33,791 nucleotides of DNA, taken from Candidatus Hodarchaeota archaeon. GTDB lineage: Archaea; Asgardarchaeota; Heimdallarchaeia; Hodarchaeales; Hodarchaeaceae. This document shows, piece by piece, positions 670 through 28,300 of this stretch. Position 1 is the stretch's first letter; the number at the start of each line of letters is the position of its first letter. The DNA lies in NCBI GenBank assembly GCA_016840035.1, contig JAEOTC010000122.1:1-33791 (forward strand). Reading direction: 5' to 3'. The notes under the pieces are model-generated. The model had not been told where the DNA came from. It made no database searches and saw only the letters and a program-made list of their open reading frames with translations. Both the position numbers and the translations under genes were made by a program.

Positions 670-1698
670 TTAATATAATTGTACAAGCGGTTTTGCTAGA
701 AGTAAATAATGTTCCCTCAAGGTAAACTCCGCAATTTCCAGAATTTCAGATAATTTTTTCTGAGTTAGAACACCTCGTCTACTCTGCTTTAAATAACACC
801 CAGGAAAGATTTTCTGTCTTGCTAGTAGAATATCGGCTGCATTAATCATTGCAGCGGCTAAAATAAATGGATTCCTTCCCCCTCGCTTTACCAGTGGGAA
901 TTGATTGAGAAGCTGTTTCGCAACAACCCTAAGATGCTGAAAAAACTCTTCACGGTTGCTAGTTCTTTTTTGAATTGCGTTTCTAATTAGATAATCTTTC
1001 TGAATCCTACCTATAATTGCATCAAGATACTCTTCAGATTTCACATGCCTAACTCTAATTTTAGCATATTGGCGAATCAACGATGCCGATCTGATAATAT
1101 CCTTACCTGCTATTGAATAGCCATTGATTTGAGCTGCCTTTACCAGTCTTTTTAACTCAATATTCTCCTTTCTTGATCTTACGGCTAAATATAAAGCTCC
1201 CATAATTACACAAGACAATTTTGTCTTCTTTTTTAACTGATAATGAACTTTTTGGAAAAGATAAAGGGCATCCGCTCTTGTAGAATCCGTCACTTCAAGC
1301 GAACTACAAACTCGTGACAGCAAGCTATAACCTCGATATTCTCTTTGACGACCATTAAAATGTAAATAGATGTCATTTAATGGTTTTAATCTACGATATT
1401 GCAACTTCTTTGAGAGAGCCAACTGATTTCCAGAAGAATCGACAAAATTTTTCTTTTGAAACGATCCAATAAATGTCCCAAGGGTTTTCATTTTACTTGG
1501 TTGTTCACTTACTGATGCATACTGACTTCCATAACTACCTTCGGAACTTATGAGCTGAAGGGATGGTTTTTCATAAATTTGTTGGGCAATCAAACCACAG
1601 TTTATACAAACAATATCAGAATCTGTCTGAATTAGGTTTCCATCGCATTCAAGGCATTTATATTTCATCCTTTTCACAATTATACGACTAGATCTCAT
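670..1698 (-). CDS. Divergent transcription initiation factor IIB (TFB)-like protein
   Basis: N-terminal Zn ribbon (CLEC-x12-CINCG) followed by cyclin-fold-like repeats (GALYLAVR; GRNPFILAAA; LTQKKLSEILEIAEFTLREHY). The real start is probably ATG 1668 (MKYKC). Confidence 0.8.
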   Translation of the reverse strand: MRSSRIIVKRMKYKCLECDGNLIQTDSDIVCINCGLIAQQIYEKPSLQLISSEGSYGSQYASVSEQPSKMKTLGTFIGSFQKKNFVDSSGNQLALSKKLQYRRLKPLNDIYLHFNGRQREYRGYSLLSRVCSSLEVTDSTRADALYLFQKVHYQLKKKTKLSCVIMGALYLAVRSRKENIELKRLVKAAQINGYSIAGKDIIRSASLIRQYAKIRVRHVKSEEYLDAIIGRIQKDYLIRNAIQKRTSNREEFFQHLRVVAKQLLNQFPLVKRGGRNPFILAAAMINAADILLARQKIFPGCYLKQSRRGVLTQKKLSEILEIAEFTLREHYLLLAKPLVQLY

Positions 1699-6372: not shown

Positions 6373-6507
6373 GGGCCCATGGCTTAGCCTGGTTAAAGCG
6401 CTCGGCGTTCAGAAAAGATTCTGAACGGGCGATGCTGATAACGCATCTGGTTCTCCAGGCTGCCGACAGAAACCGAGAGATCCCCGGTTCAAATCCGGGT
6501 GGGCCCA
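6373..6507 (+). tRNA. tRNA-Ile(GAT) containing two introns (6405-6433 at position 30/31; ~6441-6471 at 37/38)
   Basis: Acceptor GGGCCCA/TGGGCCC plus discriminator A; D stem GCTT/AAGC; T arm CCCGG-TTCAAAT-CCGGG. Removing both inserts gives the anticodon arm CTCGG-CT-GAT-AA-CCGAG. Intron 1 forms a clean bulge-helix-bulge. Confidence 0.88.
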
Positions 6508-6570: not shown

Positions 6571-8013
6571 TTAATGTTCAAATATGGTTTGATTTTCTCT
6601 AACCATTTCAGTTTCCTGATTCGGTGTTAGTTGAAGAAAATCCATTATGGAATGATGGGGATAAGCTGAATTATCATCTTTTCTTTGTTCGATTTGTTTC
6701 TGTATCATAGCGATGAGTAATCTTATCATTTGATTATCTAGATAATTTTTGGTGTTGAACTGAAGATAGTTTGCAATTAAACAATAGAGCTGTTGAAAAG
6801 ACATATGCTTTAATAAATCGGAAAGTAGAACATCTCTTCTTTGTTTACTCTCGCGTTTTACAAGCTCGTTTAAGAAAGTAGTTAGATTCTGATTATTTAG
6901 CGCTTTCCTGCAAAAATCCCTTCTATTTGAGCAATTCCTTAACTTTAATGTAAGTTCGTCAGAGCTTTTATAGATTGTACAGAATTCTTTACAAATTTGG
7001 TTATATCTGTAAGAAGTATTCGAAATCGTGACATCATCTAGTTCAATATTATTTGGAATTTTTGGGGGGGAAATATCTTCTTTTTCTTCTTCAAATGAAG
7101 TAGATTTCGTGATATAGGGGGCTAAAAGGTGTTGTAAATTCAGATCACTCCCTTCTTTGTCAATTAATGCGTATCTATCTAGATCGTAACGGATAATTAC
7201 CCTATAGAGGAAATCCTCTTTGATTTTTTCTTCAAAATAGGTTTTTCCATGAGTGGAAATCATTTCCCCAAAGAAATCAAAAAAAGAACCTAATCGAAAT
7301 TTTGTTAATGAATAGAACTGATTGGAAGACAATGAACCTTGACTAATCGTTGTTTTTCTAGGAATACTAAACCTAAAGACCGTTGAGGATTCATGAAAAG
7401 CCTTTGTAGTTAAATTTTGATTTATTGTAGGAATAAACAAATACTTTCCTTGTTTAATTAATAAATAGTCCCCATTTCGGTAGATCGAATAGTTACTAAA
7501 TTCCGATCTGAATTTTGACCTGTTTAAGAGGGATGAATTAGGAAAAATGTTATCTAGTAATGGTTTTACTTCCTCAATTTGCTTATATAAATTAATTTTA
7601 GAATTTGCATAAAGAAAGATCCTTAAGCGCTGCTCATCTTTAACCAGCTCAATTGAAATATTATGTATATTTGTTATCAGGTTGAAACCGTCAACATGAA
7701 CATCTGAAAGTGTAGAACATTCAAATATACATAAGTAAACATTAAAGTGGGGAATGAATATCATTTCATTTCCTACTATAGAAATTATTGCTTGGGATTT
7801 AAAGGGAAGTAGTTTAAGATTAGTAAAAATCACCAAACATGTAATGGCTAAAGGAATTAAATTTCCTAAGATAATTAAGCCATTTAAATCAGGGGAAAGT
7901 TGAAGTTCCTTTGAATCCATAATATTCAGAAATATGATTAAGATTAAAAGTCCTAATAGGTAGCTTAGAAATGAGAGGATCCCCCAAAGATGATTTCTAT
8001 TGGTTAGAATCAT
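6571..8013 (-). CDS. Hypothetical membrane protein (2 N-terminal TM, large soluble domain with 4-Cys cluster)
   Basis: 480-aa ORF starting 9 nt after the stop of the upstream surface-protein gene; no family recognised. Confidence 0.75.
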   Translation of the reverse strand: MILTNRNHLWGILSFLSYLLGLLILIIFLNIMDSKELQLSPDLNGLIILGNLIPLAITCLVIFTNLKLLPFKSQAIISIVGNEMIFIPHFNVYLCIFECSTLSDVHVDGFNLITNIHNISIELVKDEQRLRIFLYANSKINLYKQIEEVKPLLDNIFPNSSLLNRSKFRSEFSNYSIYRNGDYLLIKQGKYLFIPTINQNLTTKAFHESSTVFRFSIPRKTTISQGSLSSNQFYSLTKFRLGSFFDFFGEMISTHGKTYFEEKIKEDFLYRVIIRYDLDRYALIDKEGSDLNLQHLLAPYITKSTSFEEEKEDISPPKIPNNIELDDVTISNTSYRYNQICKEFCTIYKSSDELTLKLRNCSNRRDFCRKALNNQNLTTFLNELVKRESKQRRDVLLSDLLKHMSFQQLYCLIANYLQFNTKNYLDNQMIRLLIAMIQKQIEQRKDDNSAYPHHSIMDFLQLTPNQETEMVRENQTIFEH

Positions 8014-8022
8014 TACGACATC

Positions 8023-11000
8023 TCATAGAATTGCGTTTTGTCTTTTTCTTATGAATCTAAAGGAAAAAATGGCTGAGATTACCAAGAGGGAGAAAATTGA
8101 GGGGAGAAATATTGTAGGATCAATTATGCTTCTTGACCGCCTTGAATCCATTTCAAGCATTAGATCGATATAAAAAGAAATCGTATTTCCAGCCCAGTCT
8201 GAAATTGTAACGTTAATTTTTCCATTTTGAGAATAAGCATTCTGGAATTCAATCAGATGATGATTGGAGGTTAACTTTATAGGAGAATAATGGCTTCCTA
8301 AATAAGTACAGGTAATTTCCTTGACTCCTGAACTTAATTCTGGTTCTGAAGTAAAGAGATGGAGATATATATCATTATTATTTGAATCGAGATAGTACGA
8401 ATATTTCGGAGAAAATGGATCCATTATTGTAAACGTTTGCTCCGAGCTAATAGAATGTGTTTCGTCCGAAAATTTCAGTTCCATTGCCACAATAACTGTA
8501 GAATTCCACTTAAAATTCTGAAAAAATGCTTCAACAATATATGTATCATTCATAAGAGATTGAAGAGTTGTATTTCGACATTCTGAGACATATTCATCTT
8601 GAAGGGTATATATTACTCTAAACGAAAAATCAGCTGTTGTGGAAAATCGCCACCTTCCTATAATTGACTCGTTATATGCATAAAGTTCCTTTAAATTCGT
8701 CAATAGATCGATTGCTGGTACTTCAAAGTGAACTAAGACAAAATATTCTACTGCTACATTGCTAATAATACTTAGATTCCGCAGATAAAGAAAAGAATCA
8801 ATAATTTCTATTTCGAATTTCGATGTAATATCACGATTTAGGAAATCTCGAATATAGATCTCTTTCAATGGAAATTTAATGAAGTCTAATTCTAATACTA
8901 TACTATAATTCATGATTGTACCATTCGATAAGCATTCAATGTGGATTTCATAGCTTAATGAATCCTCTGAAACTGTGGAAAGGACAGTAGGCCCTTGGAA
9001 CTCTACAACTAAGGTATCATTAACAAATGGATTGGTTGAAAGATCCCAAGTAAGAGATTGATCGTTGACATCTAGTTCAAAAACAAAATCATTTCGTATT
9101 AAATAAGCAGTTATCGGTTTGTTTAGAAACTTATTAAGGGAAATATACCAAGAAGTTCCATTTATGGGATATGTAACATTGTATATATGATAAAAGGTAC
9201 TATTACTCTTGATAGGAGTCTTTCCAATTTTATCAATCAAGGGTTGAATTCTATCATAGGGGGTAGAATTGGTAGAGACTGATATTGAGGTTGTGTTCAT
9301 CTTGAGGATTTTGTCTTCAATCTGTGCTACTAGGATCATATTAAGAAGTTTTGAAGAATTAAAACCATTAGTGGGGATGAAGATATTTGCATAGCCGAAA
9401 TTATCAGTTTGAGAGTATTGCATTAGTGTATTGTTAATCCAGACCTTTAGATCTGCCTTACATAGCGGCCAATTTGTTCCTCCCTCATGTGGAGTTATAT
9501 ACATATTTACATGAATAGAAATATTATCATTCGGATTTAAGTTCTCTGGGATACCTTGAATATCCCAACTTACTTGTACAGGGAAGATCGTTAAATTAAT
9601 TTTCTTCGACGCATGAAAGTCTACACCGTTTGAGGCTATTATGGTTAGATTCCACTTTTGAGGTGGCCATATGATGTGATTCACGATTAGATTGTAAAAT
9701 CCGTTAGAAACCTCATCAAATTCATGAATAAAGTCGTTAAGAACTGCAATCACAAGTATATCTGAATTCAAATATTGTTGATGATTTTTATACAGAGAGA
9801 GGTTGATAAATAATGGATCATATTGAAAAACTTCCATATTCTCCGGAGTATGGAGTTTAATTTGATAATTTTCTATCTCTTCAGAGTAAATATGAACAAT
9901 CTGTTGATAAAATCCGAATTGATACTGTGAAGAGAGATTGACTAATAGATTGATTGCTCCGGTGGGAAATTGATCATCTAGATACCCCATTGGAAAAAGA
10001 AAACTGCCATTTAACATACAAACTGTCGTATCATAGTAAAAAATGGTTTGGTTCATCAAATAAAGATTCAATATACCAGGAATTGAATGTAGTAACTTCC
10101 CACTTATTTGAAACCATTCATTAGAGGAAATTATTGTTGGATTCGTTACAGTTTCTACATAATTAGGTGTTTCAAATCTTAATACAAGATAGTTATTATT
10201 TTCGGTCGAGAATCGATAGAAAAACCTGGTCACGTCATCTGGAGGAATTTCGGAATTCTCTAGAATCTCAAATGAGGCTGTATTATTGGAATTTTCGAGA
10301 AACGTCCAATCAATAGGTAATTTGAATAATAAGTGGCTTGAGAGAGGTAGAAGAAACAGATGAGGAATTGAAAGATTCATACTGATTTGTACAAAGGAAT
10401 TATTCCAGCTTAAAATACTTGGAGAGCAATATTCTTCATACGTTCTTGTAATTGTCAAATTGAATTGTGTCGATTGGTAAGAATTCCATAACGAGTTTTC
10501 AATTACCTGAATTGATACATTATCACTAAAAAGATCATATTTCAAGCTGACATTCTCACTGTGAATAATTACATCATTTATATGGTATGTAACTGAGCTT
10601 TCGTTGGGAAGTAAAGTAGAAGTGTAATTAATTCCCATAATATCAAGACTAACATCAAATTCAGGGATAAATGCGAACATATAGCAAAATACGGAATTGA
10701 TCTGTGAAAACATACTGTACTCTGAAGGGAGGAAATATCGAGTAATCAGATGAGAAATATTATAGGTATTTGTAATCCAATTAGATTGATCAGATTCGTT
10801 ACATAAAATATAGAGAGCATTTGAACCGGGTTTATATATACTAGGTTCAAGTGGATCTCCGAAGTGACTCCCTTTATCAGCAAGTATAAAGTTTAAAGAC
10901 CCGTTATTAAATCTCAATTCTAAAACTAATGAATGGACTTCATCGACCAATCTACTATCAAAAAATGGAATTCTATATCCAAAAGAAAACTTAGTCGAAT

Positions 11001-11553
11001 AATTACATAAGAAAGGATTAGTGGTTACATTAAAATCGATATTTGTAATTCCTGAAACTGGAGTTACATTATTTTCAGAAAAATTTAAGCGATAATGAGG
11101 AATTGGATCAGTAAGGTTTTTAAAAACTTCTACTTCCCCATAATCAGGTTCTACATTATTTTTCCAAGAAAAATTCTCATCTATGGGTACAGAATGTATG
11201 TTAAAAGACGAAGACTTAGGGGTTGACTCTAGAGAAATATTACTTGAATATGAAGAATTAAAAAAAAATAAATTCTTGCTAGTAAGATTGATACTAGTAC
11301 TCTGTTGGGTAGTATATGGAATCCGAATATCTTCGGATGTATTTGACAGAATTCTTGAGGAAATTCTTGGCCTTTTTTCACTATTGTCTGGAATGAAAGA
11401 TAACGTTTCTAATTTCTTTAATTTCGGTTTAGTTTCTGTAACATTCGCATTTGGGGGGCCGTTAAACAAGATAAATACAGGACAAATGATTATAAGAAGA
11501 ATAAAAAGCGATCTCCTTTCATACGAACATCTAAAAATAATAACAGACATCAA
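8023..11553 (-). CDS. Large membrane-anchored surface (glyco)protein, probably beta/Ig-like domains
   Basis: 1176 aa; N-terminal hydrophobic segment; C-terminal TM plus basic tail (RFIRKRQ); many N-x-S/T sequons; Ig-like strand motif VTISDWAGN near the C-terminus. Confidence 0.75.
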   Translation of the reverse strand: MMSVIIFRCSYERRSLFILLIIICPVFILFNGPPNANVTETKPKLKKLETLSFIPDNSEKRPRISSRILSNTSEDIRIPYTTQQSTSINLTSKNLFFFNSSYSSNISLESTPKSSSFNIHSVPIDENFSWKNNVEPDYGEVEVFKNLTDPIPHYRLNFSENNVTPVSGITNIDFNVTTNPFLCNYSTKFSFGYRIPFFDSRLVDEVHSLVLELRFNNGSLNFILADKGSHFGDPLEPSIYKPGSNALYILCNESDQSNWITNTYNISHLITRYFLPSEYSMFSQINSVFCYMFAFIPEFDVSLDIMGINYTSTLLPNESSVTYHINDVIIHSENVSLKYDLFSDNVSIQVIENSLWNSYQSTQFNLTITRTYEEYCSPSILSWNNSFVQISMNLSIPHLFLLPLSSHLLFKLPIDWTFLENSNNTASFEILENSEIPPDDVTRFFYRFSTENNNYLVLRFETPNYVETVTNPTIISSNEWFQISGKLLHSIPGILNLYLMNQTIFYYDTTVCMLNGSFLFPMGYLDDQFPTGAINLLVNLSSQYQFGFYQQIVHIYSEEIENYQIKLHTPENMEVFQYDPLFINLSLYKNHQQYLNSDILVIAVLNDFIHEFDEVSNGFYNLIVNHIIWPPQKWNLTIIASNGVDFHASKKINLTIFPVQVSWDIQGIPENLNPNDNISIHVNMYITPHEGGTNWPLCKADLKVWINNTLMQYSQTDNFGYANIFIPTNGFNSSKLLNMILVAQIEDKILKMNTTSISVSTNSTPYDRIQPLIDKIGKTPIKSNSTFYHIYNVTYPINGTSWYISLNKFLNKPITAYLIRNDFVFELDVNDQSLTWDLSTNPFVNDTLVVEFQGPTVLSTVSEDSLSYEIHIECLSNGTIMNYSIVLELDFIKFPLKEIYIRDFLNRDITSKFEIEIIDSFLYLRNLSIISNVAVEYFVLVHFEVPAIDLLTNLKELYAYNESIIGRWRFSTTADFSFRVIYTLQDEYVSECRNTTLQSLMNDTYIVEAFFQNFKWNSTVIVAMELKFSDETHSISSEQTFTIMDPFSPKYSYYLDSNNNDIYLHLFTSEPELSSGVKEITCTYLGSHYSPIKLTSNHHLIEFQNAYSQNGKINVTISDWAGNTISFYIDLMLEMDSRRSRSIIDPTIFLPSIFSLLVISAIFSFRFIRKRQNAIL

Positions 11554-11639
11554 AAGCTAGGTCCTACTTTTTTTTATATCTGCTTAAAAAGACTGAAATT
11601 AATTTAAAATAACCCAAGAATTTAGAAAATTTATTGTCT

Positions 11640-13103
11640 TCAAATAGATACAGTAAGGAATTGTCTTGAAGTCATGAATGCAATCAAAAACAGTAAAAAT
11701 CTTAAAAATCTAATTATTATGTCTTGAATTGATTTAGTTTTGAATTCAGGACTGAATTTAAAGGTTAATGGCAATATACTCATAATTAATCCAAGTAAGT
11801 AATAAATAGGGTCAAAATTTAAAACGGGATTAGTCTGCAAATCCGTTTCTACAACGGAACGAGAGATTAATTGAAAGAATGGGCTTGCTCCAGAAATAAA
11901 GGCTAATGAAATCAGAGAGAAAATCTGAATAACTGTGGTTTGCATTGCAGTCGCTTTAAGTCTGGCTTTTCCTAGCTGAAGTGATCTTCCTGTTCTGTTC
12001 AGTTCCTCTGTTATAGTATGCAGTTTTAAACCTGCTAGTCTAGTATCTATTTGGCTGAACTTCTCAGTAAGCTTCAAAATGTGTATTATTCTTGAGGGAA
12101 AAAGATCTCCTAGTACAGTAAGGTGTGTAGATGAGGAATCATTGATACCTAACCGAAAAGCTGTTAATGATTCTTTCGATGAAAGATTTAGGTTTTTCTT
12201 TGAATTTCTTAGATAAATGGAAAGCGATTCATTTATACTTCTGGTGTAGGACATCCCTGCAGATAAATTTTCACCATGAATTACTAAAAATTCTATCGTT
12301 TGTTTATCCATGAATGGAAGAATCAAAGATTGACTTGTAAGAATCGAAAGGTGTCTATCAGGTCGAAAGAAAATTGAACCAATTAAAACAATAGCTACCA
12401 GAATAAATCCAATGATATAATGAAGATGTCCTGAAAGTAAGAGAAAGCATATAATTACTGGAGGACACAAAAACACAAATCCAGAGTATAAAGAACCCCA
12501 AGTATCAATTTTATCGGTTTCTTCTTTGATATATTCAAAAAGATGGGAATTAATTAGATTCTTTGAATGTTTGGTGACTTCTGCTCCAGTTTCCCATGTA
12601 TCTATTATATTGAGAAAGATCCTTTGTAAATCCCCAGTAATTATGCTGTTTATTTGGAATACTAAGGCATCTTTTAATGGTGTACCATAATGAGATTCAA
12701 GTAGACTCTTCCTGAATAATTCTGAATAGATGGGATAATTTCCCGTAATAATAAATTTAGTTGCATCTTTCAGTGATTTTGAAGTTTCTAGGACAGTTAG
12801 TAGTTCATGTAGAACAAAAATTCCAATAGTCTCTGCTTTAATTACAAAATGTCTATAATCTTGCTGAATAAATAGGACCATTAAGCGTAAACTTACGAAG
12901 AGGAAAAGGATCTCAAGTATTAAAGTCTCGATCAATATCTCAGTCATTAATAATTGTGTGACTGTGATCCCGAAGAGAAAAATGACACAAAATAACAAAA
13001 TTCTTTCTATGCGGGCCCTACTAAGGTTATATTTGGTTTCCAAATACTGTGAGTAACTTAATGTGTCAAAGAATTCTAAATCCCCGAATAATAACTTTAT
13101 CAC
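11640..13103 (-). CDS. Type IV pilus/Tad platform protein, TadB/TadC (FlaJ-like, two T2SSF-type halves)
   Basis: TM pairs alternate with two cytoplasmic domains: LETSKSLKDATKFIITGNYPIYSELF...GTPLKDAL and EFLVIHGENLSAGMSYTRSI. A cognate ATPase lies ~750 nt away. Confidence 0.7.
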   Translation of the reverse strand: MIKLLFGDLEFFDTLSYSQYLETKYNLSRARIERILLFCVIFLFGITVTQLLMTEILIETLILEILFLFVSLRLMVLFIQQDYRHFVIKAETIGIFVLHELLTVLETSKSLKDATKFIITGNYPIYSELFRKSLLESHYGTPLKDALVFQINSIITGDLQRIFLNIIDTWETGAEVTKHSKNLINSHLFEYIKEETDKIDTWGSLYSGFVFLCPPVIICFLLLSGHLHYIIGFILVAIVLIGSIFFRPDRHLSILTSQSLILPFMDKQTIEFLVIHGENLSAGMSYTRSINESLSIYLRNSKKNLNLSSKESLTAFRLGINDSSSTHLTVLGDLFPSRIIHILKLTEKFSQIDTRLAGLKLHTITEELNRTGRSLQLGKARLKATAMQTTVIQIFSLISLAFISGASPFFQLISRSVVETDLQTNPVLNFDPIYYLLGLIMSILPLTFKFSPEFKTKSIQDIIIRFLRFLLFLIAFMTSRQFLTVSI

Positions 13104-13492
13104 AGGATAAATATTGAAATCCTCCTTATATATCGTTATTAGGCAAATTCATTCAGTCCCAGCATAATTAACGTGTTTAAAATAATTTATTCGGGAATTA
13201 AATACCTTAAGAGGTATAACCTTCAATTTTGAATGACAAATCCGATCGAATTTTGATCAAATCTTTCACAAAATCGCTTTTGGTTAATTGCTATTAAGAT
13301 CCTAAGAATTGACAGTCCAGAGAAGATCTGATGTTTATGCTTATTTAGCTCAATATAATTGAATTTAATCGTACATATCATCTTAAAGTACGGTTACAAT
13401 TTAATGATGAGGAATTATTTTTAATTTAGCAGGTGTTAAGCACTTTTCAGCTTAAATTTGGGTGTTTTTAATTATTTACAGCTTTTTGATAA

Positions 13493-13822
13493 TTGATGGA
13501 TTTGCCAGTCTTAGACGAACAGACAAAACAAATTACTACAAAGTGTCCAATTTGTGGTAAATGTGAAACAATAACTCTAAATCTTCTTGAATTAGAACAT
13601 GCGAGAATAAATCATTCTCTTCTTACTAAAGCAATACCTCATGTCAAAAATGGACATGTACTGACGTTATACATTGATGGAGAGGGACTTGTAAGAAGGA
13701 AATATTGTTTTGATTTAGTTCGGAATAATGTCATTAACATAGATAAGCTTACTCCAGGAAAGCTGGATAATCTGTTCGATAAAATGATTAAAGACTCAAT
13801 GCACAAAGAAAAACAAATTTAA
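13493..13822 (+). CDS. Small putative metal-binding protein (CxxC...H-x4-H...YID..G.VR)
   Basis: 109 aa with KCPICGKC and PHVKNGHVLTLYIDGEGLVRR; first gene of the ATPase operon. Confidence 0.65.
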   Translation: MMDLPVLDEQTKQITTKCPICGKCETITLNLLELEHARINHSLLTKAIPHVKNGHVLTLYIDGEGLVRRKYCFDLVRNNVINIDKLTPGKLDNLFDKMIKDSMHKEKQI

Positions 13823-13847
13823 TAAAAGAATTAGGGGATGATAACCC

Positions 13848-15185
13848 TTGCGGTTATATGATCTAGTAAAAATTCAAGATCCCAGCTCGCTAATTGATTC
13901 TTACGAGTTTCAATGCTATCAGACTACAATAAGAAAAAATTCAACCTCATCCATTGTTGAGTACTCAGTAAACTATAATAAGAAGGTTTTAAGGGAATTA
14001 ACAAATTTCAATGCTTATGAAAGACAATTAAAAGATGTGATCAAGGAATTTATTTTAAATTCTGAAGATTTTGTTACACTCGATTGTCTAATTTCGTTCG
14101 TGTCAAACATTGAAGATAAATTTTCAGACATTTCTATTTCTTTAAGAATAGCAGTCCTCCTCCGGATTCTTAATATGGAAAGAATTGGTCCTTTGTTAAT
14201 AGATGACCAAATTGATGAAATTTATTTGGATTCGAGTCAGTCATACGTTTATATTGATCATGTTCAATATGGGAGGTGTTCAACCCAAATCCGGCTCAAT
14301 AAACAAGAGATTGACTCTTTTATTAGTAGGATTACTCTTGAAAACGATTTCAACTTGAATAGAGAAAATCCAACCATGAAAGGAGAATTAATAACTAAGC
14401 TCTTTCATACAAGAATTACTATTGATATCCCGCCTCTATTAGTTGACGATATTCACCTTGATATTAGGAAATTTCATCCCAATAATCTCCAATTAAGAGA
14501 TCTTGTTAAAATTGGAAGTCTTACAAAAATACAGGGAAAATTCCTTAAGGAAATGATAAAGAATTTAATTTCAATATCAATTATTGGACCTCCTAATTCG
14601 GGAAAAACAACACTGCAAAATGCTCTAATAGAATATCTCCCTTCACATTTTAGACTTTTATCTGTTGAGGATGTTCTTGAATCTACAAATTTAAGAAAGG
14701 GAAATCAAATACGATTTAGACTGGGTTATGATCCAAAGGACACTAGAACTTATTCAAAGGCAATGGAAATCCAGAAATTATTGCATAGAAGCCCTGATTA
14801 CGTTAATTTGGGGGAACTTTCAACTGAAAGCAATTTTATCGCGTTTTTGAATGTTCTTTCTGTAGGTATTCCTTCAATTCAGACTATTCACGGTAGAGAT
14901 CCAAATTATTTACTTTTACGTTTACAGGATATTTACAAGATCCCTGTAAGTTTAATTAAAACTTCATTTCCACATATTTTTATCGAAATGGACACTATCT
15001 GGAATAAAAGCTTCCGAAACCGGTTTGTTGTTAGAATTGCAGAATTAACAACAGAAGGAACAATAGTAATCCTTTCTGATAGAGAAAGAGATGATACTGG
15101 TAATATAGGTATTAATAAAGACAATTCTACATCATTAGAATTTCTTGAATATCGAAAACATGAGTCTTTAGGACATTATGATTAG
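13848..15185 (+). CDS. Type II/IV secretion ATPase, TadA/CpaF/VirB11 family
   Basis: PLLIDDQIDEIY, LDIRKF, Walker A GPPNSGKTT, Asp box SVEDVLE, Walker B RSPDYVNLGE, partial His box QTIHG. Confidence 0.9.
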   Translation: MRLYDLVKIQDPSSLIDSYEFQCYQTTIRKNSTSSIVEYSVNYNKKVLRELTNFNAYERQLKDVIKEFILNSEDFVTLDCLISFVSNIEDKFSDISISLRIAVLLRILNMERIGPLLIDDQIDEIYLDSSQSYVYIDHVQYGRCSTQIRLNKQEIDSFISRITLENDFNLNRENPTMKGELITKLFHTRITIDIPPLLVDDIHLDIRKFHPNNLQLRDLVKIGSLTKIQGKFLKEMIKNLISISIIGPPNSGKTTLQNALIEYLPSHFRLLSVEDVLESTNLRKGNQIRFRLGYDPKDTRTYSKAMEIQKLLHRSPDYVNLGELSTESNFIAFLNVLSVGIPSIQTIHGRDPNYLLLRLQDIYKIPVSLIKTSFPHIFIEMDTIWNKSFRNRFVVRIAELTTEGTIVILSDRERDDTGNIGINKDNSTSLEFLEYRKHESLGHYD

Positions 15186-15353
15186 TTTTGTCCAGAAAAA
15201 ATTATCATTGATGTAAAAATAATAAGAAAAAAATTCAGAATATTGGATTGATATTTTGGTTTTTATAACCTTTCTTGAGAATAGATCCCAAAGATGTATT
15301 CGTTCACTTTCTCGATTAAGAAATATACGTATTTGTTTTCAATGAACGGAAAA

Positions 15354-15842
15354 ATGTCTCAAATTAGTGATATATTTGATATGAATCAGTTTGAAGGGAT
15401 TTCTTCTTCTGTTATTAACTTATTCACTGAAATAATTCCTATACTTTACACAATTGCCATTATTCTCTCAAATATTTCTTTGATTCTGGGAGGTTTAACG
15501 TTTCTATTCGATGAAAGGGAAGAAAACGGAAAAAAGATGATTTTTCGTGCACTCACTATTATTCTAGTATTTATCTTCGTATTTAATGATGTTTCTACAA
15601 CTAGCTTATTTTCTTCTACCGAATATGAACAACTTGAGTCATTCACATCATTCATTAGTATGTATTTAGTATTTATCCTTGCTACATTATCTTTAATCTT
15701 TCTTATTGGTAATTGTGGTTTATACCTGATAAATCAAGAACGAGTTTACGTTAAGAATATTAGAAAAAGCATTTTATGTCTTTTAGTCGTAATACTGCCC
15801 CTTGGTAATCACTTTCCTAAATTCCCTATTTGGAGTGTGTAA
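15354..15842 (+). CDS. Membrane protein with two TM hairpins, tandem VirB2/TrbC-pilin-like pattern
   Basis: ORF 15294..15842, start uncertain. Two repeats of hydrophobic helix-G-aromatic-charged loop-K-hydrophobic helix (ILGGLTFLFDEREENGKKMIFRAL; GNCGLYLINQERVYVKNIRKSIL). The CDS is well supported; the family call is tentative. Confidence 0.55.
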   Translation: MSQISDIFDMNQFEGISSSVINLFTEIIPILYTIAIILSNISLILGGLTFLFDEREENGKKMIFRALTIILVFIFVFNDVSTTSLFSSTEYEQLESFTSFISMYLVFILATLSLIFLIGNCGLYLINQERVYVKNIRKSILCLLVVILPLGNHFPKFPIWSV

Positions 15843-15846
15843 GACT

Positions 15847-16029
15847 ATGTTTGAGACAATGATTCTTCAGATAATTATGGAGATTATAACGATTTTTATC
15901 TCAATACCCTTTGGACTGGTTACTCTCACGTTTGGAGCTATAATCTATGTTCCAACTGGAATAAAAATTGGAAAGTACTCAATATTCTATGGTCTATTTG
16001 TTCTAACTCTAAATGCTTATCTAATTTGA
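15847..16029 (+). CDS. Small 2-TM protein, VirB2/CedA1-like hairpin
   Basis: 60 aa from ATG 15847, 4 nt after the upstream stop; TFGAIIYVPTGIKIGKYSIFYGL pattern. The family call is tentative. Confidence 0.5.
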   Translation: MFETMILQIIMEIITIFISIPFGLVTLTFGAIIYVPTGIKIGKYSIFYGLFVLTLNAYLI

Positions 16030-16384: not shown

Positions 16385-19072
16385 ATGTGGACACCAGAGC
16401 TTAAAAAAATTAGTCAAATCCAATTTGGTATTTTATCACCTGATGAAATTCGGAAAATGGCTGTTACTAAGATCATTACAGCTGATACATATAATGAAGA
16501 CGGTACCCCTATCGAAGGAGGGTTGATAGATCGCCGACTAGGTACAATTGAACCTGGACAGCGATGTAAAACTTGTGGTAATCAGGTGGGAGATTGTCCA
16601 GGTCATTTTGGTATGATTGAGCTAGCACGACCTGTTATCCATGTTGGTTATGCAAAATCGATTATATACAAGCTTCTTCGATCAAGTTGTCGTGCCTGTT
16701 CTCGAATAATCCTAGATTCAATAACAATTAAGAACTATCACAAACAGATGGATGCACTTGCAGAAAAGGAAGACATCAAATCAGTTTCTGAACTAATAAA
16801 GGAGATTATCAAAGAAGCCAAAAAGAAGGCAGAGTGTCCTCATTGTAGCCAACCTCAATATAAAATTAAATACGAGAAACCGACTAGTTTTTTTGAGGAG
16901 ACTCCTGAAGGATCTGTTAGAATTACACCATCAGAAATCCAGAAACGATTTGAGGGCATTCCTACATTGGATTTAAGGTTACTTGGTATAGATGCACACC
17001 ATTCCAGACCTGAATGGATGATAATTTCGGTGTTACCAGTTCCACCGGTTTCTGTACGTGCTTCAATTACGCTTGAATCTGGGGTTAGGAGCGAAGATGA
17101 CCTAACGCATAAATTAGTTGATATTATTCGGATTAACCAGCGTTTAAGAGAAAATATTGAGGCGGGTGCCCCTCAACTGATTGTTGAGGATTTATGGGAA
17201 TTACTTCAATACCATGTTACGACTTTCATGGATAATGAAGTCGCAGGTATTCCACCAGCTCGACATCGATCTGGAAGAGCTCTTCGTACGTTAACTCAAC
17301 GTCTGCGTGGAAAAGAAGGTCGTTTTCGTGGTAATTTATCAGGTAAAAGGGTAGATTTTTCAGCCCGTACCGTTGTATCCCCAGATCCCAATATTTCTAT
17401 TAATGAGGTAGGTGTTCCTGAACAAATTGCAAAGATCCTAACGGTTCCCGAACGAGTAACAGAGTGGAACATTGAAGAAATGAAAGAACTGGTTATGAAT
17501 GGTCCCAATCCTGATATTGATGAAAAAACTGGGGTTTCACGTACAGGTTCAAATTATATAATTAGACCTGATGGAAAACGGATTGACCTCAGATTTGTTG
17601 GTGATCTCAACAAAACAGCAGAGATGATCGATCAAGGGTTCATTGTAGAAAGACATCTTCGTGATGGAGATATGGTTCTTTTTAATAGGCAACCTTCTCT
17701 GCACAGAATGTCTATTATGGCTCACGAAGTTCGTGTGATGCCATTTAAGACCTTCAGGCTCCATCTATGTGTGTGCACTCCCTATAATGCCGACTTTGAT
17801 GGAGATGAAATGAATTTACACGTCCCACAGAGCGAAGAAGCAAGAGCCGAGACCAGAGTTCTTATGCGTGTACAAGAGCAAATTCTTTCTCCAAGGTATG
17901 GAGGTCCTATAATTGGTGCTCTGCATGATTATGTATCAGCTGCTTTTCTATTGACAAGAAAAAAGACACTCATCTCTAAAGAGGATGTATGGCAACTATT
18001 ACTGGCTGGAAATTATGATGCTGAATTACCAAAGCCAGCCATCGCATACCCTGAAGAATTATGGACAGGAAAACAAGTTTTCAGTTTACTTCTACCCCCT
18101 GATGTAAATGTTACAACAAAAGCTAGAACTTGTCGTAAACACGAGCAGTGTAAGTCTGAATTGTGTGAATTTGATAGTTATGTGTATATCCGTAATGGCT
18201 TATTACTTTCTGGAGTAATAGATCGTCGTGCGATCGGAGCAGATGAGTCTGAAAGTGTACTACACGTTGTAGTCAAAGATCATGGAAGTGATCGTGCACG
18301 AGAATTCTTGGATTCATTAACCCAGTTATTATTAGAGTTTTTATCTCATGAAGGATTCAGTCTTGGTTATTCAAATGTTAATCTCCCTGATGAAGGTAAG
18401 AAAAGAATTGATATGCTTATTGAAGAAAAAGAAAATGCTGCAAATGAAATGATTGAAGCATATCGTAGAGGGGAGTTGGAACCTCTTCCTGGAAAATCAC
18501 TTGAAGAAACTCTTGAAATGAGGATTATGAGTATTTTAGCAAAAGCAAGAGACAGTGCAGGGAGTGTTGCAAACGATTATATGGGTATTTCAAACTCTGC
18601 GGTAGTAATGGCTTCAACTGGAGCAAAAGGTACTCAACTAAACATAGCTCAAATGGCTGCATGTGTCGGTCAACAATCAATCAGAGGAGAGAGAATTTTA
18701 CGAGGATATAGAAAACGAGCACTCCCTCATTTTAAAAAGAATGATATAGGTCCTGTAGCAAGAGGATTCGTCCGTGCAAATTACCGTTCAGGATTAAATC
18801 CAACAGAATTTTTCTTTCATGCACAAGGTGGTCGTGAAGGATTAGTTGACACAGCTGTTAGAACCTCAACTAGCGGATATCTCCAAAGAAGATTGGTGAA
18901 TGCCCTGCAAGATTTACATGTAAACTATGATATTATCGTCCGAACCACTGAAGGGGATGTAGTTCAGATGAAATACGGTGAAGATGGTGTGGATCCAATG
19001 AAATCGTATCATGGCAGACCAGTAGATATCGATACAATCATTGAGGAAGAAATTTCATCAGAGGAGAATTAA
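16385..19072 (+). CDS. rpoA1: DNA-directed RNA polymerase subunit A' (Rpo1N)
   Basis: CPGHFG Zn site, GRFRGNLSGKRVDFSARTV, NRQPSLH, catalytic YNADFDGDEMN, GREGLVDTAVRT. Confidence 0.99.
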   Translation: MWTPELKKISQIQFGILSPDEIRKMAVTKIITADTYNEDGTPIEGGLIDRRLGTIEPGQRCKTCGNQVGDCPGHFGMIELARPVIHVGYAKSIIYKLLRSSCRACSRIILDSITIKNYHKQMDALAEKEDIKSVSELIKEIIKEAKKKAECPHCSQPQYKIKYEKPTSFFEETPEGSVRITPSEIQKRFEGIPTLDLRLLGIDAHHSRPEWMIISVLPVPPVSVRASITLESGVRSEDDLTHKLVDIIRINQRLRENIEAGAPQLIVEDLWELLQYHVTTFMDNEVAGIPPARHRSGRALRTLTQRLRGKEGRFRGNLSGKRVDFSARTVVSPDPNISINEVGVPEQIAKILTVPERVTEWNIEEMKELVMNGPNPDIDEKTGVSRTGSNYIIRPDGKRIDLRFVGDLNKTAEMIDQGFIVERHLRDGDMVLFNRQPSLHRMSIMAHEVRVMPFKTFRLHLCVCTPYNADFDGDEMNLHVPQSEEARAETRVLMRVQEQILSPRYGGPIIGALHDYVSAAFLLTRKKTLISKEDVWQLLLAGNYDAELPKPAIAYPEELWTGKQVFSLLLPPDVNVTTKARTCRKHEQCKSELCEFDSYVYIRNGLLLSGVIDRRAIGADESESVLHVVVKDHGSDRAREFLDSLTQLLLEFLSHEGFSLGYSNVNLPDEGKKRIDMLIEEKENAANEMIEAYRRGELEPLPGKSLEETLEMRIMSILAKARDSAGSVANDYMGISNSAVVMASTGAKGTQLNIAQMAACVGQQSIRGERILRGYRKRALPHFKKNDIGPVARGFVRANYRSGLNPTEFFFHAQGGREGLVDTAVRTSTSGYLQRRLVNALQDLHVNYDIIVRTTEGDVVQMKYGEDGVDPMKSYHGRPVDIDTIIEEEISSEEN

Positions 19073-20278
<1,206 letters not shown>

Positions 20279-24811: not shown

Positions 24812-25024
24812 TTAAGAAAACAATGAGCCAAGTTCTCTTAATAACTCATCTGCATTCATCAGTAACCAATCTAAAACTCCAGTTACAATAGAAAAGATTA
24901 GCAAGAAACCGAATAAGCTCAAACCTATTAATATACCTTCCTCCACAAGAGGCGAGCCTCTCCTTTTAGATTGAATTCTTTTGAACTGTGAATGAGCCTT
25001 TCTTAACCTTTTATGCCTTTTCAT
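24812..25024 (-). CDS. Putative Flp-like type IV prepilin (class III signal peptide)
   Basis: Basic leader ending KRRG, then SPLVEEGILIGLSLFGFLLIFSIV (Glu at +5, hydrophobic helix) and a short amphipathic tail; 47-aa mature peptide. Confidence 0.65.
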   Translation of the reverse strand: MKRHKRLRKAHSQFKRIQSKRRGSPLVEEGILIGLSLFGFLLIFSIVTGVLDWLLMNADELLRELGSLFS

Positions 25025-25128
25025 GATTCCATCACAATAATAAATATTTGGTTGCTTTTAATCTCCTAAATTTCTAGGTTTTTGGGACTTTAAAATGCAA
25101 AAAGATAACTATGAAGTTGGTGTAGTAC

Positions 25129-25719
25129 TTGCGGTTAGTTCCTTCGAAAGAAAAAAAACCATTAAAAATAGTCCTTTTGGGAGAAGGCGGTGTGGGAAAA
25201 ACAACAATATCAAAATCTTACATTGATAACTACTTTTTTACGAAATCAAAACAAACAATTGCTGTAGAATTTCATTCAAAGATAATTACACGTTCAGATA
25301 AGGAAGTTAGTAAACTTCAGATTTGGGATCTTGGGGGCCAAGGGCACTTCAAACATATGGGTGTCTTTAGTGAATTTTGTAGGGGAGCTGATGCAGCCTT
25401 ACTTTGCTTTGATCTTACAGATCTTTCATCCTTATTCAATCTTGCAGAATGGCTTGGGTTCATTGCTCCCACTATTCCTAGGTTTTTGATTGGTACAAAA
25501 TCTGACCTAGCAACTCAAGATGAACAGAATTTCAATCTAGAACGTTATGTTCACAGATATAATTGTGTCACATCATTTAAATGTTCAGCTAAAGATCTGA
25601 AAACGGTTATGAGTATTTTCGAGAGCGTTCTACAAACAATCGAAAGAAAAAACGGCAAAATGAGTAATATATCTTCAGAATCGAATTCTCACATTTCTAA
25701 TAGACTTTTAGTTTCATGA
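25129..25719 (+). CDS. Ras-superfamily (Rab-like) small GTPase
   Basis: G1 GEGGVGKT, G2 QTIAVEF, G3 KLQIWDLGGQ, G4 GTKSD, G5 CSAK. Confidence 0.95.
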   Translation: MRLVPSKEKKPLKIVLLGEGGVGKTTISKSYIDNYFFTKSKQTIAVEFHSKIITRSDKEVSKLQIWDLGGQGHFKHMGVFSEFCRGADAALLCFDLTDLSSLFNLAEWLGFIAPTIPRFLIGTKSDLATQDEQNFNLERYVHRYNCVTSFKCSAKDLKTVMSIFESVLQTIERKNGKMSNISSESNSHISNRLLVS

Positions 25720-25729
25720 GGTACTAGTA

Positions 25730-26479
25730 ATGCAAAAACTGTTAAGAAAAACCATGAATGAGCAATCTTCACGAATTCCAAGTGGAGTTATTGGCTTTGA
25801 TAAGCTTGTAAAAGGAGGATTTAGAGAACATTCAGTTAATGTGATCATTGCGGATCCTGGCTGTGGTAAGTCCACTTTCTGTTGGCAATATTGTTCCAAT
25901 GATCTGAATATTCCAGCGCTTTATGTGTCATTAGAGCAAAATGTAAACTCCGTATTAAGAGATTGCAACGATATCGGATTAAAGAAATTCAATAAAAAAT
26001 ATAGAGAAGGAAATTTGCAATTCCAAGTTGCTTTCAATGTCGAATCTGAACTAACTTCAGGAGAAATTGGATTGAGATTTTTCATGAATGAGCTACCTAA
26101 ATATCTTGAAGTAATCAAGGAAACGGCCTCTAAATACTCAGGAGGAATTCGAATCGCGATTGATCCTTTAACGCCATTACTACTAGAAATTTCGGACCCA
26201 AATCAACAGAGAAATGCAATCAACCGAATTTTTTCATCGCTAAGAGAGATCGGAACTGCAGTGGTCACACTAGAAAAAGGTTTTGGCGATGTATTAGCAA
26301 GAATCCCTCTTTTTCTCTCAGATTCTATAATAGAGCTCGAGCATATTGGGCTAGGGGGTATATACAACCGCACATTGAGTATCAGAAAATTTAGAGGATC
26401 ATCTCATTCTGAAACTCCTCAACCAATTGGTTTTCAAAAGGAAAAAGGATTAATTGTTTATGATATCTCAAATACATGA
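25730..26479 (+). CDS. Single-domain KaiC/RAD55-like RecA-superfamily ATPase
   Basis: RIPSGVIGFDKLVKGGF, Walker A DPGCGKST, YVSLEQ, Walker B IAIDP, RTLSIRKFRGSSHS. Confidence 0.9.
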   Translation: MQKLLRKTMNEQSSRIPSGVIGFDKLVKGGFREHSVNVIIADPGCGKSTFCWQYCSNDLNIPALYVSLEQNVNSVLRDCNDIGLKKFNKKYREGNLQFQVAFNVESELTSGEIGLRFFMNELPKYLEVIKETASKYSGGIRIAIDPLTPLLLEISDPNQQRNAINRIFSSLREIGTAVVTLEKGFGDVLARIPLFLSDSIIELEHIGLGGIYNRTLSIRKFRGSSHSETPQPIGFQKEKGLIVYDISNT

Positions 26480-26909
26480 TATTGAAGCTCATACATTTAC
26501 ATTAAATAGGGCAATCGAATCCATTCAAAATGAGGCCAACCACTTATTTTTATTTCAGGATGTAAAAGCAGCAATTCTTTTCCGTTTGGATGGGAGAGTA
26601 ATTACCTCTTTTTATGAAATGGAAACATCTAATTCTATATTATCTGTTATCAAATGGGTCAAAGAAATTATCTCAAAAACTAAAGATGAACTTAAACATG
26701 GTGCAAGTTCAATTAAGTATAATAAACGGAGTCATCAAAATGAATCATTACCAGTTTATTTTTACCGTACTGGAAATTCTGGAATCTTAGTAGTTATTTT
26801 ACATTCAAAAGCTAATACAGGATTAATGGAAATAGAGATGAGTCGAACCGCTAGACGATTAGGGATAATTATTGATAAAAAAAGGCCAATAGGGGATTTA
26901 AATATATGA
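26460..26909 (+). CDS. Roadblock/LC7 (MglB/LAMTOR-like) domain protein
   Basis: DVKAAILFRLDGRVITS and ILVVILHSKANTGLMEIEMSRTARRL match the roadblock strand/helix patterns; overlaps the KaiC-like gene end. Confidence 0.8.
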   Translation: MISQIHDIEAHTFTLNRAIESIQNEANHLFLFQDVKAAILFRLDGRVITSFYEMETSNSILSVIKWVKEIISKTKDELKHGASSIKYNKRSHQNESLPVYFYRTGNSGILVVILHSKANTGLMEIEMSRTARRLGIIIDKKRPIGDLNI

Positions 26910-28285: not shown

Positions 28286-28300
28286 GAAAATTCAGTTAAA

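Follow-up and report, generated by a model that had tools for sequence, protein, structure and literature searches.

A conserved gene cluster beside rpoA' in Hodarchaeales probably encodes a strongly diverged Flp-type type IV filament machine

INTRODUCTION

What machine is encoded by a cluster of seven genes that lies among the core genes of an Asgard archaeon? The cluster is located on contig JAEOTC010000122.1 of Candidatus Hodarchaeota archaeon (GCA_016840035.1), which was analyzed on the forward strand from position 1 to position 33,791; we refer to this whole stretch of 33,791 nucleotides (nt) as the window. A first-pass annotation had described the cluster as a Tad/type IV pilus-like locus mixed with VirB2/Ced-like small membrane proteins and had proposed an Asgard-specific machine for adhesion, cell contact or DNA uptake, possibly a hybrid. 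We found no description of this cluster in the literature, and the latest census of archaeal type IV filaments records only scattered, hard-to-classify components in Asgard archaea (PMC13705601). Our analysis indicates that the cluster probably encodes a lineage-specific, strongly diverged Tad/Epd-like (Flp-type) type IV filament machine, known here from its genes alone. This machine appears to be the Hodarchaeales version of a class-wide Flp-type system.

RESULTS

The cluster and its ATPase

The open reading frame (ORF) list divides the seven genes into two divergent arms, three genes on the minus strand and four on the plus strand, in exact agreement with the two divergent operons and spacer of about 390 nt first described for the locus. 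The features of the cluster are given below, with coordinates from the ORF list, likely starts from ortholog alignments and protein lengths in amino acids (aa).

6571-8013, minus strand: 480-aa protein
8023-11553, minus strand: 1176-aa protein
11640-13103, minus strand: 487-aa protein, the predicted platform
13104-13492, no strand: divergent promoter spacer of 389 nt
13493-13822, plus strand: 109-aa protein
13848-15185, plus strand: 445-aa ATPase
15294-15842, plus strand: 182-aa ORF, with a likely start at 15342 that gives 166 aa
15802-16029, plus strand: 75-aa ORF, with a likely start at 15847 that gives 60 aa

The 445-aa ATPase is the sole cluster protein that matches a family model above its cut-off in Pfam and NCBIfam: it matches Pfam T2SSE (PF00437) at 54.7 bits, against a cut-off of 24.9 (E 8.7e-15). 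Its nearest relatives of solved structure are A. fulgidus GspE2 (2oap, 1.3e-18), FlaI (4e-13) and CpaF (6e-10), while VirB11 reaches only 4e-5, and this ranking indicates an archaeal-type ATPase of the pilus/archaellum family and not a VirB11. Fifteen orthologues share invariant Walker A (GPPNSGKTT), Asp box, Walker B and His box motifs, as well as an invariant IRKF motif in the N-domain; throughout the same family, the usual GE-V/I-R after Walker B is replaced by GE-L-S. The VirB11, FlaI, TrbB and TadA models of NCBIfam all fall far below their equivalog cut-offs (62 bits against 550 for FlaI). The label TadA/VirB11 given to this protein at first therefore stands as far as the T2SSE family and the intact motifs are concerned, and fails for VirB11.

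The VirB11 model nevertheless gives the ATPase its best NCBIfam score, and a VirB11-like ATPase combined with VirB2-fold hairpin proteins would suit a hybrid of a type IV filament and a conjugation-like (Ced/Ted-type) DNA-transfer apparatus. That score (TIGR02788, 83.4 bits) is far under the cut-off of 250, however, and it covers only the P-loop domain (residues 231-364), whereas GspE2, FlaI and CpaF rank higher over the full length. The remaining evidence on this hybrid comes from the small membrane proteins and is considered with them.

The genome also encodes a canonical pilus ATPase, on contig C186, to which the 445-aa protein is 24% identical. In a maximum-likelihood tree of Heimdallarchaeia sequences (midpoint root, no named outgroups), the 445-aa ATPase belongs to a clade with 100/100 support that also holds the Flp-adjacent ATPases of other Heimdallarchaeia families, and the canonical pilus ATPases fall apart from this clade. 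Within the family, the tree is one of vertical inheritance.

The platform protein

The 487-aa protein has no match in Pfam or NCBIfam, and the profile of its family found none among the sequences of the PDB. Its AlphaFold2 model, built with 25 homologues (predicted local distance difference test [pLDDT] 79.5), is all-helical with two repeated units, and the top Foldseek match of the model is PilC of the type IVa pilus machine (3jc8_Ca, E 0.03, prob 0.97). VIA-align placed residues 82-204 on the cytoplasmic domains of SpoIIIAB (Z 7.3), PilC (N-domain 2whn, Z 6.9, 101/103 residues) and EpsF (2vma, Z 6.5), each domain being covered almost completely, although Z scores of about 7 are also reached by unrelated helical bundles. 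In the ESM Atlas, the protein matches (TM score 0.74) a cluster of archaeal proteins, 12% of which carry PF00482, and an exhaustive search of 1.8 billion representatives with the family profile reached proteins with PF00482 above cut-off. Comparisons with hhalign gave no match between the platform family and the genome's own TadB and TadC or the split TadB-like gene of a relative from another family (genome G006), and an E of 6e-4 to the split TadC-like gene of G006. These lines are each of moderate weight and are concordant, and on the basis of the modeled fold and the transitive profile links we assign the 487-aa protein, with moderate confidence, as a very diverged T2SSF platform. The TadB/C-like platform proposed in the first-pass annotation is thereby retained, and with it the pairing of a T2SSE-family ATPase and a T2SSF-type protein as the core of a type IV filament system.

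Epd ("system 1") and Tad systems are characterized by a pilin without a globular domain and by two platform genes (PMC13705601). Here there is a single 487-aa gene and not two separate ones (TadB and TadC, or EpdJ and EpdK). In other Heimdallarchaeia families, however, genes of 270 aa and 230 aa behind the related ATPase match the N and C halves of relatives of about 500 aa, which indicates that this genome carries a fused variant. The 487-aa platform is thus probably a TadB-TadC fusion.

A candidate pilin and prepilin peptidase

A short gene elsewhere in the window could supply the filament subunit.

24812-25024, minus strand: Flp-like class III prepilin of 70 aa, recognized from its translation, 9 kb from the cluster and beside a small-GTPase operon

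The prepilin has a basic leader ending in KRRG, and cleavage is predicted after RRG, giving a mature protein of 47 aa that starts SPLVEEGIL. Glu is at position +5 of the mature peptide, a hydrophobic helix follows, and there is no globular domain. Orthologs are present in 20/21 genomes of the same family at 70-86% identity; the mature pilin is nearly invariant in 13 of these genomes, and Glu +5 is conserved across the class. The Flp_Fap model of Pfam does not detect the protein.

In relatives, the pilin gene lies close to ATPases of the same clade. The distance is 1.7-2 kb in all three loci with enough flanking sequence (G006; G072 and G081), which come from two other Heimdallarchaeia families, and the adjacent ATPases are 36-40% identical to the 445-aa ATPase and 24-27% identical to the canonical one. 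A second link is provided by L051, a metagenomic contig with a distant homologue of the platform (23% identity), an ATPase and a 109-aa homologue (39% each) and a large surface protein that is 22% identical to the 1176-aa protein over 700 residues. The L051 cluster is interleaved with a Ras-like GTPase, a major facilitator superfamily (MFS) transporter, an OST3/6-like protein, a DUF87/HerA-like ATPase and a 63-aa gene that is 62% identical to the 70-aa prepilin. Its GTPase (45% identity) and MFS transporter match window genes at 25129 and 28301, and the GTPase, the transporter, the 109-aa homologue and the ATPase are encoded in a single co-directional gene string, whose junctions are short or overlap. 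The occurrence of the pilin within or near the ATPase/platform set in relatives indicates that the machine is not pilin-less, and the gene product at 24812-25024 is a probable filament subunit, as judged from these sequence features and gene neighborhoods.

The canonical pilus locus on C186 has four RRRG-type pilins of its own with larger globular bodies and so has no need for the Flp pilin. On the same contig, locus L007 (G000 contig C186, 1711-9586) adjoins the gene for the DNA polymerase D large subunit.

Our genome search for a prepilin peptidase gave one candidate, a class III signal peptidase encoded on contig C112, outside the window. It scores 38 bits with PF06847 (Arc_PepC_II), whose cut-off is 29.9, and 19-22 bits, below the cut-off, with PF01478 (Peptidase_A24). 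The genome therefore holds a T2SSE ATPase, a T2SSF platform (of moderate confidence), a class III pilin and an A24 peptidase candidate, the parts by which type IV filament systems are recognized.

Conservation of the cluster

Wherever the contig allows, all seven genes are found in the same order and orientation in about 19 related genomes (tblastn on fetched loci), almost always between S9 and rpoA'. The cluster is present in 19/21 genomes of the same family, and the two apparent absences (G055 and G056) are not real, as both are scaffolds in which 100-N gaps abut rpoA'. The seven genes thus co-occur in related genomes. The platform family is found in the same 19/21 genomes, in 1/2 genomes of the sister family, where the ATPase orthologues are 42-44% identical, and in 0/59 genomes of the other five families of the class. 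The Asgard specificity first suggested for the locus consequently applies in a narrower sense: the seven-gene form is confined to Hodarchaeales, and a simpler form occurs in other Heimdallarchaeia families as well. We take this simpler form, with a TFB-like gene, an ATPase, split TadB/TadC, a Flp pilin and a large anchored protein, to be ancestral.

The cluster evolves fast, with identities of 35-60% for the platform and 22-40% for the 480-aa protein, versus 90-99% for rpoA'. In the 99%-complete genome G065, the gene for the four-transmembrane (4-TM) protein is in two pieces 6.8 kb apart (C18:76256-76462 and 83280-83609; L089 and L090) and the left arm shows a rearrangement; this suggests that a segment was inserted or inverted inside the cluster.

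Accessory proteins

The 109-aa gene is always directly upstream of that of the ATPase, also in the distant locus L051 (39% identity, E 1e-11), and its family is restricted to Hodarchaeales-type genomes. The protein had been noted for its CxxC and His residues; C18, C21, H41, H50, H55 and C72 prove to be invariant, together with a TLYIDGxGxVRRKYCF block, and the protein is cytoplasmic and probably Zn-binding. The two small proteins that follow the ATPase had both been described as membrane hairpins, which holds for one of them. Ortholog alignments place the likely start of the 60-aa product at MFETM and support a 2-TM hairpin with a conserved loop, Y-x-P-T-G-x-[RK]-x-G-[KR]; its family has no Pfam match and no relative among PDB sequences. 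The 182-aa ORF instead encodes a 4-TM protein, with four hydrophobic segments and conserved loops across 12 orthologs; its probable start at 15342 (166 aa) agrees with the public gene call. The 4-TM family is limited to Hodarchaeales. A role as a mini prepilin peptidase was ruled out for this protein, which has no invariant Asp, and the idea of three paralogous hairpins found no support in hhalign (60-aa family versus 4-TM family, E 0.22).

These small proteins bear directly on the proposed conjugation hybrid. The 182-aa protein has a weak match to TrbC/VirB2 in Pfam (PF04956, E 0.07), but at 13.8 bits this falls short of the cut-off of 27.9 and is seen in 2/12 orthologues, and PDB searches with a profile for each small protein recovered no chain of VirB2, TraA, CedA1 or TedC. 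Neither protein has a cleavable leader. In favor of the hybrid, a DUF87/HerA-like ATPase with a weak TrwB match adjoins the pilin gene in L051 and in L070; the two DUF87 homologues of the genome analyzed here, however, are on other contigs (C105 and C28), and Pfam and NCBIfam searches of the cluster recognized no VirB4/CedB, VirB6/CedA, coupling protein or relaxase. Taken together with the low-ranking VirB11 match of the ATPase, these results make a VirB2/Ced-like hybrid very unlikely, and we have dropped that part of the first-pass annotation.

As side observations on these loci, the OST3/OST6-like membrane protein and the DUF87/HerA-like ATPase of L051 occupy positions 9611-12307, inside the pilus cluster, and the L070 neighbor of the pilin, from genome G069, is a DUF87 protein of the same type.

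On the left arm, the 1176-aa protein begins with a hydrophobic Sec-type leader, carries 45 N-x-S/T sequons and ends with a C-terminal TM helix and a conserved basic tail, RKRxxSIL. The AlphaFold2 model (pLDDT 78) is all-beta across residues 78-1130, with about ten beta-sandwich domains, and its Foldseek matches are macroglobulin/immunoglobulin (Ig) domain arrays and an archaeal S-layer protein (8c8m), at E values of 1e-17 to 1e-13. A Protein Atlas look-up gave no usable match. Large proteins with the same two ends are encoded beside the Flp loci of L051, G006 and G081. The protein is a type I membrane surface protein, probably an adhesin or an envelope-spanning partner, in line with the anchored surface protein that had been predicted at this position. 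It does not qualify as a class III substrate of pilin type, because it has a C-terminal anchor and because G/A/S is not consistently found just ahead of the hydrophobic stretch.

Such a protein raises the possibility that the machine builds no long adhesive pilus, and that its main task is to insert, organize or extend the 1176-aa glycoprotein in the envelope by means of the ATPase, the platform and a short Flp pseudopilus. Such a system would be comparable to a type II secretion piston or to the bindosome assembly system of Sulfolobus. The genes for the platform, the 1176-aa protein and the 480-aa protein are transcribed together, and several Heimdallarchaeia lineages have, at their Flp-type loci, a large anchored protein of beta-sandwich domains that shares the basic tail; the S-layer protein among the Foldseek matches and a weak match of the ATPase to BasE (NCBIfam NF053672, E 1.5e-7) point the same way. 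The BasE match, however, scores 30.5 bits against a cut-off of 1000. The ordinary Sec-type leader of the 1176-aa protein and its own C-terminal anchor make a pilus machine unnecessary for its export, it has no consistent class III signal, and the Flp pilin is nearly invariant, as a polymerizing subunit would be. We consider the deployment of a surface protein in this manner unlikely, and retain the filament machine as the better account of the cluster.

The 480-aa gene always follows the 1176-aa gene in orthologous clusters. A TM scan agrees with its earlier description as a membrane protein, finding two N-terminal TM helices followed by a domain of about 400 aa with a low sequon count. C341, C345, C361 and C411 are invariant in the family, and this Cys-cluster domain is probably cytoplasmic. 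Neither Pfam nor PDB sequences contain a relative of the protein or its family, and the Atlas returned only weak unnamed rows (score 0.85).

The GTPase operon, a shared promoter-like motif and a TFB paralogue

The pilin gene is arranged head-to-head with an operon that has counterparts in the L051 cluster, and a diverged paralogue of transcription factor B (TFB) is encoded near the left end of the window.

25129-29680, plus strand: GTPase module, recognized with Pfam
670-1698, minus strand: diverged TFB (TFIIB-like) paralogue, recognized from weak TFIIB and Zn-ribbon Pfam matches

The operon encodes a Ras-family GTPase (Pfam Ras, 1.6e-30), a single-domain KaiC-like ATPase (KaiC, 5.8e-29), a 151-aa protein, a FIST protein and an MFS transporter, the last two also recognized by Pfam. 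The KaiC-like protein, of the ArlH/FlaH type, is encoded directly behind the GTPase (25730-26479, plus strand; PF06745, 101 bits). The spacer between the pilin and GTPase genes is conserved in 12/12 relatives. The operon is a probable regulatory module of the machine.

Alignment of the divergent spacers of five orthologous clusters from five species revealed two conserved blocks: TAAGATCCTAAGAAT at 13295-13309, in mid-spacer, and TTTGGGTGTTTTTAATT at 13457-13473, about 20 nt before the start of the 109-aa gene. A motif from the second block, TTTGGG-N3-TTWWAAT, which spans 13457-13472 on the plus strand, recurs at 25081-25096 on the plus strand, before the GTPase operon, and is conserved at both loci in relatives. 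It has seven copies in the 4.3-Mb genome, and none of the other five is at the promoter of a relevant gene. Because the motif was defined post hoc from its own sites, the link that it makes between the ATPase and GTPase operons, as a putative shared promoter element, is only suggestive.

The TFB paralogue is 28% identical (E 2e-36) to the TFB-like gene that immediately precedes that of the Flp-type ATPase in G006, and the same arrangement is seen in G081. On this basis, the paralogue is possibly a transcription factor dedicated to the pilus.

Flanking genes and borders

The genes around the cluster agree with the core-gene setting first reported: rpoD, L18e, L13 and S9 with a tRNA gene on the left (Pfam and Rfam), and rpoA', rpoA'', L30e and NusA on the right (Pfam). 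Scans of all seven cluster proteins with Pfam and NCBIfam likewise bear out the absence of an archaellin, A24 prepilin peptidase, VirB4/HerA, relaxase or integrase from the cluster. The tRNA gene (6373-6507, plus strand) is 135 nt long and forms the left border; it was found by Rfam at 51.5 bits and missed by ARAGORN, presumably because it contains one or more introns. On the other side, rpoA' and rpoA'' (16385-20278) have no rpoH or rpoB upstream, and in all genomes of this family examined that place is taken by the pilus cluster. A 125-aa ORF at 11183-11560 (plus strand), antisense to the start of the 1176-aa gene, is probably not a real gene.

The border with the tRNA gene would suit an ancient element integrated at a tRNA site, or a decaying remnant there, without any function in the cell today. 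The cluster is also AT-richer than its flanks (GC 0.29-0.33 versus 0.34-0.41) and evolves much faster than its neighbors, and the split 4-TM gene of G065 could be read as decay. No integrase and no evidence of flanking repeats accompany these features, however; seven intact genes persist at one site family-wide with invariant catalytic motifs, and the ATPase tree shows vertical inheritance. A remnant of this kind is hardly credible.

DISCUSSION

The filament machine is the reading that we favor, and several points weigh against it. The evidence for the platform is moderate, with a Foldseek E of 0.03, Z scores that are not specific to the fold, null hhalign comparisons with the genome's own TadB and TadC, and just E 6e-4 with the split TadC-like gene. 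The Arg that usually follows GE after Walker B is replaced by Ser family-wide, and the activity of the ATPase is a prediction from its motifs. The pilin escapes the Flp_Fap model, its 9-kb linkage to the cluster in this family may simply reflect core-gene synteny, and, as Flp-like pilins are class-wide, the canonical C186 machine could in principle assemble it. No function can be assigned to five of the seven proteins, and the roles given to these accessory proteins are drawn from position and topology only. The post hoc definition of the promoter motif belongs on the same side.

In the machine as we envisage it, the ATPase, presumably a hexamer, would sit beneath the fused TadB-TadC platform. 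The class III signal peptidase encoded on C112 would cut the 70-aa prepilin after RRG to leave a 47-aa helix with Glu at +5, and ATP hydrolysis would drive the platform to lift the processed Flp-like pilins from the membrane and stack them into a thin pilus. The other five cluster proteins would be accessory parts specific to Hodarchaeales. Among these, the 109-aa protein may act as a small Zn-type partner of the ATPase, the 4-TM and 2-TM proteins probably lie beside the platform, and the 480-aa protein, with its two TM helices, would add a Cys-rich domain that is probably cytoplasmic. The 1176-aa protein, a putatively glycosylated Ig-like array held by a C-terminal helix with a short cytoplasmic tail, would be an adhesin or an envelope-spanning partner. 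Expression and activity are probably tied to the operon for the Ras-like GTPase, KaiC-like, FIST and MFS proteins and to the TFB paralogue, and the likely role of the machine is adhesion or cell-cell contact.

Among known systems, the Epd ("system 1") pilus of Methanococcus maripaludis is similar in its FlaI/GspE2-type ATPase, its TadB-like and TadC-like platform units, its class III signal peptidase and its presumed adhesive role. Unlike in Epd, the platform units are fused in one protein, which escapes the T2SSF model of Pfam, the genes for the pilin and peptidase lie apart from those of the motor, and five accessory proteins (Zn-type, 4-TM, 2-TM, the 1176-aa Ig array and the 2-TM Cys-rich protein) have no Epd counterpart; Epd-type minor pilins were not found in the cluster. 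Bacterial Tad/Flp systems (type IVc; TadA/CpaF, TadB, TadC, Flp and TadV) share the very short pilin that is cut after Gly and has Glu at +5, a TadA-like ATPase, with CpaF among the nearest solved relatives, and TadB/TadC-like platform units. They differ in that here no secretin or Rcp outer-membrane parts and no TadZ, TadE, TadF or TadG were recognized, archaeal GspE2 and FlaI are closer relatives of the ATPase than CpaF is, and the pilin is missed by Flp_Fap. What is new with respect to Epd and Tad is therefore the fused platform that is invisible to family models, the dispersed pilin and peptidase, the five orphan accessory proteins and the GTPase linkage.

More distant comparisons can be made with four other systems. 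The type IVa pili of Myxococcus and Thermus are controlled by MglA/MglB, and here too a Ras-family small GTPase is encoded beside pilus genes, and in L051 within the string that holds the ATPase. Unlike MglA/MglB, this GTPase matches the eukaryote-like Ras/Roc/Arf models of Pfam and has KaiC-like, FIST and MFS partners, and the link is putative. The archaellum offers a parallel in the ArlH-type KaiC-like protein; its FlaI model, however, is far below cut-off for the ATPase, and no archaellin match (Pfam) was found in the cluster or the other window genes scanned. The bindosome assembly system (Bas) is set apart by its BasE model, which also scores far below cut-off. With the Ced/Ted systems and VirB2 pilins (PMC9905601), the likeness is in the shape of the small proteins only, a hydrophobic helix, a short basic loop and a second hydrophobic helix; the cluster differs in having no significant TrbC/VirB2, CedA1 or TedC match, no VirB4/CedB or VirB6/CedA and no leader peptide. 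The Ced/Ted paper mentions no ATPase of the VirB11, TadA or T2SSE type (PMC9905601).

A bolder version of the filament reading, which we regard as quite improbable, is that the features peculiar to Hodarchaeales would convert a plain Flp pilus into a cell-contact organelle switched by a GTPase. These features comprise the fusion of the platform, the Zn-type partner, the 4-TM and 2-TM proteins, the 2-TM Cys-rich protein and the giant glycoprotein with its Ig array. The Ras-family GTPase, its KaiC/ArlH-like and FIST partners and a dedicated TFB would then set where and when the machine fires, and its product would be, or would nucleate, the globular-tipped filaments of Hodarchaeales protrusions at contacts with methanogens. 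Unexplained globular-tipped filaments have been seen only on Hodarchaeales protrusions that contact partner methanogens (bioRxiv 10.1101/2025.02.26.640444); connecting these filaments of cultured Hodarchaeales to the present locus is speculation.

Since family models miss the platform, surveys would probably overlook this machine. The analysis removes a tempting, unsupported annotation as a conjugation hybrid, and it ties together three seemingly unrelated loci of the window, the motor cluster, the tiny pilin and the small-GTPase operon. It also provides a concrete candidate for a Hodarchaeales surface appendage, and the filament motor may be a prokaryotic one to which a small GTPase of eukaryote-like type is coupled.

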